The notes beneath the pieces are model-generated. The model had not been told where the DNA came from. It made no database searches and saw only the letters and a program-made list of their open reading frames with translations. The translations under genes and the position numbers were made by a program. This document shows positions 42,870 to 61,908 of a DNA stretch of 64,000 nucleotides, one piece after another. Source of the DNA: Octopus vulgaris (lineage: Eukaryota); the NCBI GenBank assembly GCA_951406725.2, contig OX597822.1, positions 14,136,001-14,200,000 of the forward strand, read 5' to 3'. How positions within the stretch are numbered: the stretch's first letter is position 1; each line of letters opens with the position of its first letter.

Positions 42870-43229
42870 TTAAAAAAAAAATTTTTTAATTTTTAAATTT
42901 GTATTTATTTATTTATTTTTTTTTTTTATGTATTAGACATTCACTAATACAACACCAAAAAAAAAAAACCCAAATATATGGCACAGAACTTCCAACCTGT
43001 TGTCTCTTGAGGTCTCTGGGTGAGACTTGGAGCCAACTTGTACAGACATAAAGCAAAAGTCAAACATAGAATAATAATAATTATAATATATATATATTCA
43101 TATATGAGTTGAGTATAGAAATTCGGGGTGAGTACTTGATAATTATAAGCACCTGTGTATACCGTTTGGTGGTGTAGGTGGTGGAGTAAATTGATCAAAA
43201 TAAAATAAAAACATGATGCGAAGGATTCA

Positions 43230-43307
43230 GCGGTACATATGTTTCGGGCCTTTATTAGACAGATTTATAACAATGCATAATGTATGTCTGTGGCCTTCTT
43301 CAGCCGC
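43230..43307 (-). ncRNA. Type I hammerhead ribozyme motif (minus-strand copy, left arm)
   Basis: Exact reverse complement of 43585-43662. Confidence 0.65.
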
Positions 43308-43584
43308 GCACAACAGCTTCCGCAAGGACATGTGTTACATCAAAAATTCTTGGTTGGGGATGCAAATCCTCTCATTCACGTACGACATAATGCGGCAGCA
43401 GCATAGAATTGAAGCGTCCATCTCTTTCTTCTCTCAATGTAGAATGATTCTACATTGAGAGAAGAAAGAGATGGACGCTTCAATTCTATGCTGCTGCCGC
43501 ATTATGTCGTACGTGAATGAGAGGATTTGCATCCCCAACCAAGAATTTTTGATGTAACACATGTCCTTGCGGAAGCTGTTGTGC

Positions 43585-43662
43585 GCGGCTGAAGAAGGCC
43601 ACAGACATACATTATGCATTGTTATAAATCTGTCTAATAAAGGCCCGAAACATATGTACCGC
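43585..43662 (+). ncRNA. Type I hammerhead ribozyme motif (plus-strand copy, right arm)
   Basis: GCGG-CTGAAGA-A-GGCC-[ACAGA...TCTGT..]-GGCC-C-GAAA-CATAT-GTA^CCGC. Helix I is GCGG/CCGC, the core is CUGANGA and GAAA, helix III is palindromic ACAUAUGU, and the GUA cleavage site lies after 43658. Confidence 0.65.
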
Positions 43663-43734
43663 TGAATCCTTCGCATCATGTTTTTATTTTATTTTGATCA
43701 ATATATTCATATATGTATAGATAGATGGATAGAT

Positions 43735-45075: not shown

Positions 45076-45611
45076 AAATTTTGTTAAATTTTGTGTGGAG
45101 AGTACAGGAACCCTCAAACCAAAGAGCTGACTCAAATACTTGCAGGAGACAGGACTCGGCCAGGAAGACATAGTTGGGTGGGATGCGGGGGTGCAGGGTG
45201 GAGTGGCACAGTGCCATGCAGGTGACGCATTTATGGAGTCAGCACTTTGGGTTTATCGTATAAGCGTGTATAGGTCGTTTTGCCCAACGGCGATGGGAAC
45301 AGTACAATCACGGGCCATCCCAGGCGGCACTCACTCTAACTACGCCATTGGTTCCACCCCGGATAAACCTTGACCGAATAATTTTTTTTCTCTCTGTCTG
45401 AATCGGCTCAAATGCTTGCTTAACTAGACTTGTCTCCGTTTAAGGCAATCAGGGTACCAAATATTGGTTTCAAATTTTGGCACGGGCCAACTATTTTAGT
45501 GTATAGTTAAGTTTATTACATTGACCCCAGTGTTCAACTGGTACTCGTTTTATAGATCCCAAAGAGATGACAGACAGATAGACAATCAGGCACAACAGAC
45601 AGACAGACGGA

Positions 45612-45875
45612 CAGACAGATAGTGTGTGTGAGAGTGTTTGTGTGTGGTCGTTGAGGTGTTTTCATTTGAATGTAGCAATTTCAGTTGTGAAGAACGTCAA
45701 AGGTTCAGATGCCGAATGTTTTTGTTTGTTGGTGTGTCTAGCTCTCTATTTTTATCAAAATGGGATTGACGTGAATTTAAACAGGCTTCTAGTTGATGCG
45801 TGGCAGACACACACACACACACAGACACATATATATATATATACATATATATATGCATATATATGTATATATATG

Positions 45876-45935
<60 letters not shown>

Positions 45936-45957
45936 CATATATATACGTATATATATA

Positions 45958-46009
<52 letters not shown>

Positions 46010-46737
46010 GATATAGATATGTATGTATGCAGAGAGAACTACGACGGTACTGTGCAGATTGGCAGAGAAAGGCTGTGCAATCTGAGATACTAACGGCTAG
46101 GACGAATTGCTGCAGATGATACGCAAAGTGAAAGACTTGAGTGCACAAAGTGACCTATTCCTGAATGTAAAGAAGACAAAGATTTTGGTGGTGGATAAGT
46201 ACAGGACAGACCAAGGTGACTTCACCGTAGACGGAGAGATGACTCAATAAGTGGATGATTTTGTGTACTTGGGATCCACAATCAGCACCAGTGGATCAAG
46301 TACACCAGAGATACGGAGAAGGCTCGCGATAGGGAGGCAAGCGGTACAAGATATGGAGAACATCTGGAAGAGTCGTAGCGTGCTGAAGATAAGGCTTCTC
46401 TATTGCGACGTACGGCTGCGAGTCGTGGACAATATTGAAGGCAGACGAGAAAAGAGTGGGCGCTTTTGAAATGTGGTGTTACCGCAGAATCCTTAGAGTG
46501 TCGTGGACGGAGGAGAGAAGGACGAACAACTGGGTACTAGAAAATCTCGGTTGCGAAACATCATGAAGCGGAAGCTACGGATCTTTGGCCACGTCATGCG
46601 CCGGGATGGACTTGGGTGAATGATCATAACTGGCAAGGTGAGCGGCAGACGTAAAAGAGGCAGACCACCCCCACTTCTTGGCTGAAGGACATTGCAGTCG
46701 CAGGGTTGTCTTTATTCTCAGCTGTCCATGGGGTAGA

Positions 46738-47373: not shown

Positions 47374-47531
47374 ATGTATGTGTATATATATATATATATA
47401 TATGTGTGTGTATGTATGTATGTATGTGTATATATATATATATATACATACATATATTTATATATATATATACATACACACACATACATACATACATATA
47501 TACATACATATATATACATACGTACATACAT

Positions 47532-47565
<34 letters not shown>

Positions 47566-47788
47566 GTCTGTGTATGTGTGTGTGTGTGTGTGTGTGCCAC
47601 GCATCAACTAGAAGCCTGTTTAAATTCACGTCAATCCCATTTTGATAAAAATAGAGAGCCAGACACACCAACAAACAAAAACATTCGGCATCTGAAGCTT
47701 TGACGTTCTTCACAACTGAAATTGTTACATTCAAATGAAAACACCTCAACGACCACACACAAACACTCTCACACACACTATCTGTCTG
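45612..47788. repeat. 194-bp inverted repeat pair (45612-45805 and 47595-47788) enclosing ~1.8 kb
   Basis: The arms are reverse complements with 3 visible mismatches (mirror ORFs [17 protein letters not shown]... on both strands). The symmetry continues inward as (CA)n(TA)n versus (TA)n(TG)n. Confidence 0.9.
46105..46720 (+). pseudogene. RTE-clade LINE ORF2 3' remnant
   Basis: LFLNVKKTKIL...VDDFVYLGSTISTSGSSTPEIRRRLAIGRQA...YGCESWT...AFEMWCYRRILRVSWT. Frameshifted. Confidence 0.85.
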
Positions 47789-48088
47789 CCTGCCTGCCTA
47801 CCTGCTTGCGTGCCCCCCCCCCCACCACACTCTCTCTCTCCTTCTCTCATCTACCGACTATAGTTGCCAAATGCTGTTTATTTCCTGCTGTACGTTATCA
47901 GTTGTTTTGTTTTTGCTTATATTCCGTGAACGTGATGAGTTTCAAGGTTCGTTTTATTAAATGCGTATTTCAGTACAACAGTTAAAACGCTTGTTGTTTA
48001 TGTGCAAGACCCACATCGTCTCCGACTGTCCTTGATTTTGTTTGAAACATTATGACAACTGGGTTATTTCATTACTAAAAGCAGTTGA

Positions 48089-48832
48089 GGCGGTGAGCTG
48101 GCAGAAACGTTAGCACACCGGGCGAAATGTTTAGCAGTATTTCGTCTGCCGCTATGTTCTGAGTTCTAATTCCGCCGAGGTCGACTTTGCCTTTCATCCT
48201 TTTGGGTCGATTAAATAAGTACCAGTTACGCACTGGAGTCGATATAATCGACTTAATCCGTTTGTCTGTCCTTGTTAGTCCTCTCCGTGTTTAGCCCCTT
48301 GTGGGTAGTAAAGAAATAGGTATTTCGTCTGCCGCTACGTTCTGAGTTGAAATTCCGCCGAGGTCGACTTTGCCTTTCATCCTTTTGGGTCGATTAAATA
48401 AGTACCAGTTACGCACTGGAGTCGATATAATCGACTTAATCCGTTTGTCTGTCCTTGTTTGTCCTCTCTGTGTTTAGCCCCTTGTGGGTAGTAAAGAAAT
48501 AGGTATTTCGTCTGCCGCTACGTTCTGAGTTGAAATTCCGCCGAGGTCGACTTTGCCTTTCATCCTTTTGGGTCGATTAAATAAGTACCAATTACGCACT
48601 GGAGTCGATATAATCGACTTAATCCTTTTGTCTGTCCTTGTTTGTCCTCTCTGTGTTTAGCCCCTTGTGGGTAGTAAAGAAATAGGTATTTCGTCTGCCG
48701 TTACGTTCTGAGTTGAAATTCCGCCGAGGTCGACTTTGCCTTTCATCCTTTCGGGGTCGATATATTAAGTACCTGTTGCGTACTGGGGTCGATCTGATCG
48801 ACTGCGCACCGCCCTCCAAGTTCGGACCTTGT
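48089..48832 (+). repeat. Head-to-tail tandem array of Meta-like SINE body, 183-bp period, ~3.7 units
   Basis: GTATTTCGTCTGCCG starts at 48137, 48320, 48503 and 48686. Only the first unit has the A-box head. Confidence 0.9.
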
Positions 48833-60520: not shown

Positions 60521-61387
60521 TTAATCCCAGTTTCTCATTTCTCTATAAAATATCTCGTGGTGAAGAGATTTGAGATCCTCGACGAGATCTTGAAGTCTGG
60601 TGCGCTTTTTAGGGTTGTCCATAGTGCAGCTGTTCACGAGGGGAACGAGACATTCCACCCGCATCAGGTCCTGAATTGCATCAAAGACATGACCCAGACT
60701 GAACACATCCGACGAAGTACTGGTTGGTTGTTTTGCTTTGACCTCGGGGGCAACATGGTAACAGCTTTCACTTTCCGAAATATCAAACGATATTCCTTTC
60801 AAGGTGCTAGCACACCCAAAATCTATAAAGCGAATTTGAAAATCGATAGTGTATCGATCTATAAGTATGTTATCAGTTTTAATATCGTTTAATAAAATGC
60901 CTTGAGCGTGTATTTTCTTTAATCCCCGAGAAAGTTGCAAACAGATACCTATACAATTTTTGCTCTTAAGCGTAACACGCAAATCACAGAGAAATTTTGA
61001 AAGGGTAACACCTTGTCCGAAATATTCTTGAACTAAGCACGGTTGTATTTCTGAATTTTCATCCTGGATCAAACCGAAACATTTCGGCACCACCCCTGTT
61101 TCTGATAAATGGCTCATAATTTTAGCTTCGGCACAAATTTCCTTCATGTCTTTGTTCTTGAAGCATTTCACTACTACCAAGCTCGGCATCCCTTTGCAGC
61201 GACCCAGGTAGACTCGGCCGTATGTGCCCTTGCCAACCAACTCTTTTTGTCCGTCGTTGCGTGATATGTAACGAAATTCCATATCAAGGATCGGTAAGGT
61301 TATATTTTCCAAATCTAAATTTCTGTAAGGATGAACGCCGGTGGCAATCTGGATCTTTTTAACAGTTTTCCAAAATTTAGAACCCAT
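60521..61387 (-). CDS. Serine/threonine-type protein kinase (complete catalytic domain in one ORF, non-RD)
   Basis: 288-aa ORF with GKGTYGRV Gly-loop, VVVK, alphaC Glu (CAEAKIM), LLNDIKTDN catalytic loop, DFG, HVAPE, SDVFSLG and KKR. AATAAA lies on the minus strand at 60313-60318, and a possible acceptor TTTCTACAG sits 4 nt before the ATG. Confidence 0.9.
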   Translation of the reverse strand: MGSKFWKTVKKIQIATGVHPYRNLDLENITLPILDMEFRYISRNDGQKELVGKGTYGRVYLGRCKGMPSLVVVKCFKNKDMKEICAEAKIMSHLSETGVVPKCFGLIQDENSEIQPCLVQEYFGQGVTLSKFLCDLRVTLKSKNCIGICLQLSRGLKKIHAQGILLNDIKTDNILIDRYTIDFQIRFIDFGCASTLKGISFDISESESCYHVAPEVKAKQPTSTSSDVFSLGHVFDAIQDLMRVECLVPLVNSCTMDNPKKRTRLQDLVEDLKSLHHEIFYREMRNWD

Positions 61388-61399
61388 TGTACTGTAGAA

Positions 61400-61461
<62 letters not shown>

Positions 61462-61469
61462 TATTGTTA

Positions 61470-61545
<76 letters not shown>
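61400..61545. repeat. (ATT)n microsatellite immediately upstream of the kinase ORF
   Basis: Direct reading. Confidence 0.95.
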
Positions 61546-61546
<1 letters not shown>

Positions 61547-61908
61547 TGTATTAGTAGTAGTTGATGCCGTGATTAACTTTGGTTTTCATCATTACGGGGT
61601 CGGTAAGATAACTACAAGTCAGGCGCTGGGATCAATGTAACCGTATTCCTCTCCCCTCTTAATATCTGGCTTTGTGCCCCAAATGGAAACAATTATTATT
61701 AATGCTGTTGTTGTTGTTGATGTTATTATTTCGGACTCAATTATTTAAATCGCAATAACAATGATGGTAATTATATCCAGATTCATTTGAAGTCTATAAA
61801 GGTTTTTTTATAGCAACAAATAAGATAGGACTGCAATTGTAACTGTCTTTGGAGAAGACATTGAAAGGGGTTCTCAACTAGGTTATATATATATATATAT
61901 ATGCATGT

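Follow-up and report, generated by a model that had tools for sequence, protein, structure and literature searches.

How does a long and perfect palindrome with a hammerhead ribozyme motif on each strand arise in an animal genome? A locus in a 64,000-nucleotide stretch of Octopus vulgaris DNA (hereafter the window) raises this question. The initial annotation described a perfect 513-bp palindrome with a single-G spacer, and this description proved exact: the arms measure exactly 256 bp each (43190–43445 and 43447–43702), contain no mismatch, and flank a lone G at 43446, with a GC content of 0.40. Among the other perfect palindromes listed for the window, the 25 that follow in length are (AT)n runs with at most 36 bp per arm.

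Elsewhere in the window, a 420-bp inverted repeat (45596–46015 and 47385–47804, 83%) has copies 1369 bp apart and is largely microsatellite, and a tandem array at 48137–48803 comprises 3.6 copies of a 183-bp unit at 95%. On the minus strand, positions 60524–61585 form an unbroken reading frame of 354 codons that lies behind a long AAC repeat. It encodes a protein kinase domain (Pfam PF00069, E 2.7e-27) and represents a single-exon kinase gene or a retrocopy.

We searched the octopus's own genome with the arm and obtained 44 matches at 99–100% identity, with the best 40 of 1376 candidates scored. Most arm copies extend upstream into a longer, coding element. In one copy (L156), a pLTR is followed by a frameshifted ORF that spans +409 to about +2918 and then by a long 3′ UTR rich in simple repeats; the next pLTR comes 4684 bp after the first, which gives a pLTR-ORF-pLTR partial tandem (element numbering, with the arm's first base as +1). 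Motif reading and alignment revealed FD..SYY, MG, and YRDD, characteristic of a reverse transcriptase (RT), and VIY..YIG, characteristic of a GIY-YIG endonuclease. Every near-full copy examined is frameshifted or truncated. Exact 16–17-mer counts across the genome gave at least 772 occurrences at +213, 712 at +3, and 574 at −27. By sequence comparison, the arm represents the pLTR (3′) terminus of a coding EN+ Penelope-like element (PLE), an identity that speaks against the undescribed ribozyme-bearing fold-back element, or replication intermediate of one, proposed in the initial annotation. Copies were found solo, inverted, or joined to the PLE ORF, all of which the initial annotation had envisaged; of tandem arrays of the palindrome unit, which it had also envisaged, there was none at the locus or among 199 mapped arms. 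In being short, non-coding, hammerhead-bearing, and PLE-related, the locus resembles the metazoan non-LTR retrozymes described in bioRxiv 10.64898/2026.07.22.740005. As described there, however, those retrozymes are tandem arrays of units, whereas the octopus locus is an inverted pair of a coding element's end.

Pfam and PDB searches with the element ORFs gave no recognition, and the element was placed by its motifs, by alignment, and by the published Hydra description. Its protein contains PADKT, CNCRCASEC (the CxCX5C linker), CQLCCVE, and CIH, all Hydra-clade features, together with a GIY-YIG core without the CCHH cysteines. Among 69 homologues, DK[TS] occurs in 56 and DKG in 4. The site of the RWK motif reads RIKW or RIRW followed by A in the octopus element and RMRWK in close homologues. 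These matches to the description in PMC8557442 suggest that the element belongs to the Hydra clade of C-terminal EN+ PLEs. It differs from the clade as outlined there (Craig et al. 2021) in its size, with a 4684-bp unit and a 1.8-kb simple-repeat-rich 3′ UTR against generally less than 3 kb; in its tail, of 76–85 nt against 30–40; and in having RIKW or RIRW in place of RWK. Hydra-1_Obim, compared by eye in its published form, is a separate family whose hammerhead and protein are unlike those of the octopus element.

The full insertion (43105–43702) exceeds the palindrome and is asymmetric. Both arms comprise pLTR positions +1 to +256 and read outwards from the centre, the left arm (43190–43445) on the minus strand and the right arm (43447–43702) on the plus strand. 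The right arm ends at +256, which we call the short (S) 3′ site. On the left side only, an 85-bp tail (43105–43189, minus strand; +257 to +341) follows and ends at +341, the long (L) 3′ site; this tail matches the natural pLTR-to-ORF continuation in the near-full copy. Fifteen identical bases lie at 43092–43106 and 43701–43715 (plus strand). Eleven of them are outside the element and two at each end also match the element terminus, these being the last two bases of the left copy, shared with the end of the tailed arm, and the first two of the right copy, shared with the end of the tail-less arm. This 15-bp direct repeat framing the insertion is the target-site duplication (TSD). The 5′ ends of both arms meet head to head at 43446, and the base at this centre corresponds, on the minus strand, to the element's own −1 C. 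A one-tailed, TSD-framed pair of inverted pLTRs is in keeping with the remark in the initial annotation that PLE insertions can yield such pairs. Two further statements made there also agree with our data: the ORFs within the insertion do not exceed 81 aa, consistent with a lack of convincing coding capacity, and the arms are identical to many dispersed copies, as a very recent insertion would be. Just left of the insertion, at 42986–43044, lies a short repeat of very high depth with loose ends on both sides in four runs, a fragment of another repeat family.

The hammerhead motifs occupy 43230–43307 on the minus strand in the left arm (predicted cut between 43234 and 43233) and 43585–43662 on the plus strand in the right arm (predicted cut after 43658). 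Their parts are helix I GCGG/CCGC, CUGAAGA, helix II GGCC/GGCC, GAAA, and GUA ending at 43658. Helix III, ACAUAUGU, is self-complementary, with a duplex energy of −7.0 kcal/mol, and the extension of helix II is weak (−8.6 kcal/mol). The core boxes, the three helices, and the NUH site of a type I hammerhead are all conserved, and the initial annotation was correct in reading one type I motif of the PLE kind, with a palindromic helix III, on each strand. Its A.C apposition at 10.1/11.1 did not hold up, being not conserved. A related family has an A before GAAA, making it more likely that the A and C are unpaired bases flanking the G-C closing pair.

Across the genome, the pattern CUGANGA..GAAACAUAUGUA gave 3616 matches in several families, compared with 2 for a control pattern. 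Helices I and II differ between families yet pair, as GCGG/CCGC or AUUUUC/GAAAAU in helix I and GGCC/GGCC or GGCU/AGCC in helix II. The excess of matches and the differing yet paired helices together make the hammerhead motif well supported as a conserved structure. In the window, Rfam gave no match at the gathering score, and its 20 matches at E up to 10 included no hammerhead family; hairpin-type miRNA models returned by Rfam at E up to 10 were below threshold and were rejected. Free folding of the long arm did not form the hammerhead fold (z = 1.95), as expected for dimer- or protein-assisted motifs, and this result carries no weight either way. Four of 772 arms (L196, L197, L200, and L201) start at +212 or +213, the predicted cut, where about one is expected from background, a weak hint that some element RNA may be cut by the hammerhead in vivo.

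At least four hammerhead-bearing repeat families have the core and the palindromic helix III in common and differ in helices I and II; one of them is tailed by about 156 nt and, in L206, carries an ORF of the same PLE type. The octopus motif shares with the minimal PLE hammerheads described in PMC4209133 the type I layout, a 4-bp helix I, an extra base between 9 and 10.1, and a small palindromic helix III. Unlike those, as described, it also has an extra base before GAAA and a long, interrupted extension of helix II. The same source (Cervera and de la Pena 2014) describes pairs of hammerhead motifs 100–700 bp apart on opposite strands in Schistosoma. At the octopus locus, the hammerheads appear to be passengers of the pLTR, and we assign them no role in palindrome formation.

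We next compared the locus with other copies of the family. The 3′ ends of the 199 mapped arms are bimodal: 95 lie at +228 to +265, near +256, and 87 at +318 to +350, near +332, while the remainder either continue into the ORF (11 arms) or end at other positions (6). Of the first 100 matches listed, 54 belong to head-to-head pairs. Pairs were never selected by their 3′ ends, and one of 69 pair rows was dropped as the duplicate of a locus with an internal deletion. In the main family, 66 of 68 distinct pairs combine a long and a short arm. The two exceptions are a pair without a tailed arm (ends at +233 and +190) and a long arm whose partner ends at +207. The same rule holds for all 31 additional pairs, of which an older subfamily contributes 4 and two other families contribute 13 (tails of about 70–78 nt) and 14 (about 156 nt). 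Thus, across three families, 97 of 99 pairs have one tailed and one tail-less arm, and none has two tails. Separately, L035 (C1:19712100-19713400) has a pair of tailed arms whose tails face each other across an AT run, with additional short tail copies in between; these are probably separate insertions in one microsatellite.

AT-repeat flanks of the (TA)n target type are present at nearly all of the 66 pairs. Most of these pairs sit in pure (AT)n, where target duplications are unreadable; our TSD search flagged 16 pairs, of which 8 give 11–16 bp, 6 give 2–4 bp, and 2 are long AT runs.

The head-to-head, one-tailed pLTR architecture is already published. As described for complex EN+ PLE insertions in PMC3846280 and PMC8557442, it includes head-to-head inverted, 5′-truncated pLTRs, junction palindromes, a one-sided tail, a short TSD, and a pLTR that contains an initiator-like site. 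Arkhipova et al. (2013; PMC3846280) describe these head-to-head pLTRs, junction palindromes, and one-sided tails with TSDs of 8–10 bp, and propose self-priming on an antisense template. In PMC8557442, the tail is ascribed to nuclease resolution, and the formation of tandem and inverted PLE structures is named as an open question. The octopus family, whose TSDs measure 11–15 bp against 8–10 bp, differs from these published accounts in the near-strict one-tail rule (97 of 99), the tail being called optional there. In the openly accessible literature, to which our search was confined, we found no statement of a one-tail rule or of double priming for PLEs.

What reaction would leave one tail and two inverted arms? 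We consider it likely that the palindrome is a two-armed, 5′-truncated insertion of a young EN+ PLE, in which both nicked strands of an AT-rich target acted as primers and the resulting cDNAs were joined head to head. The GIY-YIG nuclease would cut the two target strands about 15 nt apart. Each target 3′ end would pair with the RNA over 2 nt, one at the long site (+341) and its counterpart at the short site (+256). From there, both cDNAs would extend to the 5′ end of the RNA at an internal promoter (+1). With both ending there, the arms would be of equal length and the centre sharp. Finally, repair would join the two cDNA ends with an overlap of about 1 base.

Priming by both target strands is familiar from L1 twin priming, which results in a 5′ inverted arm. 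The arms of L1 twin priming are non-overlapping and the site of the second primer is variable, whereas the octopus PLE has fixed priming sites and arms that often overlap fully. A biochemical parallel is available within the PLEs. In vitro, both strands of the target are nicked and extended by a PLE protein that begins synthesis at two internal positions of the RNA, one on either side of the tail, with hammerhead cleavage unneeded (PMC11167929). That protein, from Poseidon of Anolis (Frangieh et al. 2024), is like the octopus element in its AT-rich target, in its use of both strands, and in its two RT start sites. Poseidon belongs to another clade, however, and that report is not known to assign each start site to one arm of a single insertion. 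Its priming is reported there as non-homologous, in contrast to the 2-nt target matches at both ends of the octopus locus.

The alternative that survives best keeps the same PLE origin and makes one arm by fold-back: a first cDNA, or an antisense RNA template, would copy itself, and a nuclease would trim the second arm at the short site. This is in essence the self-priming proposed for head-to-head PLE palindromes in PMC3846280, and the window would suit it, with the short arm nested in the long one and both starting at the same point. We therefore turned to the 5′ ends across the family, leaving out 10 of the 66 pairs for junction gaps above 60 bp, so that 56 clean pairs were compared. Both ends are at +1 in 20 of these, most of them picked by the palindrome pattern, and near-equal ends in 7 more would likewise be compatible with fold-back. 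Among the 36 clean non-promoter pairs, however, the tail-less arm extends more than 60 nt further 5′ in 19, and the tailed arm does so in 10. Fold-back nests the short arm inside the long one, so the 19 pairs that are not nested indicate that, at least there, each arm had its own cDNA. In addition, a cDNA begun at the short site lacks the tail and could not template the long arm. Nine of the 66 long arms are little more than tail. On these arm comparisons, fold-back as the sole route is excluded, and we regard it as an unlikely source of the window's second arm.

With double priming as the favoured reading, the comparisons also bear on the number of templates. In 41 of 45 pairs the two arms carry the same bases at 8 diagnostic SNP sites, and in the other 4 a single site differs; with partners shuffled, a mean of 6.2 and a maximum of 14 of the 45 pairs agree. 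The shared haplotypes point to one source per insertion, and can also fit sister RNAs, source genes active in succession, or gene conversion between arms. Near-equal 5′ ends occur in 7 of the 36 non-promoter pairs against 2.9 expected (p = 0.013). This is modest evidence that leans towards one RNA; two of these seven pairs share the region from +123 to +141, a possible structural stop. Tail-only long arms do not significantly outnumber very short short arms (9 versus 4, p = 0.13). The likeliest form of the reaction, which we rate slightly above an even chance, is that one RNA serves both primers, the alternative being two sister RNAs in one dimer.

The position of the junction is also non-random. 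A genome pattern for near-perfect palindromes matched 22 loci with the centre at +1, compared with 3 when it was set on a control position some 80 nt downstream. Of the 28 5′ ends that lie between −399 and +212 in a genome-order sample of 27 pairs, 13 fall within 19 nt, from −10 to +8 (p = 6e-13). The excess is weaker in a second genome-order sample of 30 arms, solo arms included, with 5 ends at −13 to +3 and 9 at −109 to −14 (p = 0.047). In a related, more diverged family, two inverted junctions (L221 and L228) also coincide with the ATTCTA of the +1 hot spot.

The sequence at this position has features of a promoter. TCATTC at +1 (43442–43447, minus strand) resembles the fly initiator consensus, and GGACG at +27 is one base short of +28, the position of the fly DPE. 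Judged by the sequence, the upstream context of full copies, and this consensus, the initiator-like site spans the junction and is whole on the left arm only. The putative DPE-like GGACG (+27 to +31) is present in both arms, at 43415–43419 on the minus strand and, mirrored, at 43473–43477 on the plus strand. Penelope of D. virilis is described as having an internal initiator/DPE promoter in its pLTR, with the DPE RGACGTGY (PMC2377424). The likeliest origin of the +1 hot spot is that both cDNAs run off the 5′ end of a promoter-initiated RNA. Many arms extend far upstream of +1; these would stem from the 3′ pLTR or from longer transcripts. We also considered, and rejected, a cap as the source of the central G, as the base is equally the element's −1 C and other +1 junctions show no consistent G.

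A recurrent centre could also be produced if the palindrome were a ribozyme element in its own right, non-autonomous like a retrozyme or MITE, whose entire hairpin is copied as one unit. The same centre at 22 loci would fit this, as would one copy (C15) that shares the window's very junction. Moreover, the left arm retains an intact initiator-like site, a hammerhead, and both priming sites, so that its transcript could retrotranspose again. Against this, the junction sequences vary among the 22 palindromes, and the haplotypes of C15 and of the copies with the commonest junction are unlike that of the window and mostly unlike each other. Varied junctions and differing haplotypes indicate that the +1 palindromes were built separately rather than copied as a unit. 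With the arm continuous with the coding element in most copies and tandem arrays lacking among those mapped, we judge whole-unit copying to be improbable, more so than fold-back.

Two +1 palindromes (L057 and L062) have lost most of one arm and resume at +192, consistent with the instability of near-spacer-less palindromes, and a spacer-less palindrome that persists was seen at L058. None of the public runs listed with the sequence is recorded as RNA. Contigs of three public runs, guessed to be RNA, cover the pLTR into the ORF, and no start, splice joint, or editing could be read from them.

The initial annotation had also held that transcription from either side yields the same hairpin RNA. 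This stands for read-through transcripts, which are predicted to form a 256-bp duplex (−485 kcal/mol) that buries both ribozymes. It fails if the centre is a promoter, from which outward transcription would give a single-arm RNA free of the hairpin.

Perfect palindromes are a known type of chimera, and none of the contigs listed from four independent runs covers the exact centre, so an assembly or long-read fold-back artefact has to be weighed. The flanks of the palindrome are not mirrored, the 85-bp tail is one-sided, and a 15-bp direct repeat surrounds the unit; unequal flanks together with a direct repeat are not what a read fold-back would produce. Older, diverged palindromes of the same build exist, and contigs of three other public runs carry head-to-head arm joints at many other positions. 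We consider an artefact very improbable. Equally remote is retention of the hairpin by the host as a siRNA source or ADAR substrate, for although a read-through transcript would fold as a long duplex and rotifer PLE copies are described as yielding small RNAs (PMC3846280), the arms are identical to many dispersed copies, which makes the insertion too recent for selection to be visible.

The locus itself is ordinary transposon debris, and its value lies in the family copies to which it leads. Countable constraints emerge there: in three families a single tail marks 97 of 99 pairs, partner arms have a haplotype in common, cuts are staggered and primed through 2-nt matches, and 5′ ends cluster at a likely promoter. 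These constraints speak for double priming rather than fold-back. We tentatively extend this reading to PLE insertion as such, a generalization that we place just below an even chance. Double priming would be obligatory, with one RNP using each nicked strand once, at two fixed sites, on a single RNA. One and the same reaction would then account for the tail on one side, the inversion of the pLTR, and the perfect palindromes, and the +1 palindromes would be run-off copies that map the start site. If obligatory double priming is true, it would replace the published explanations by self-priming and by nuclease resolution, and if the run-off at +1 is true, transcription starts could be mapped from DNA alone. 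The question of how PLEs insert is thereby testable in the existing in vitro system.
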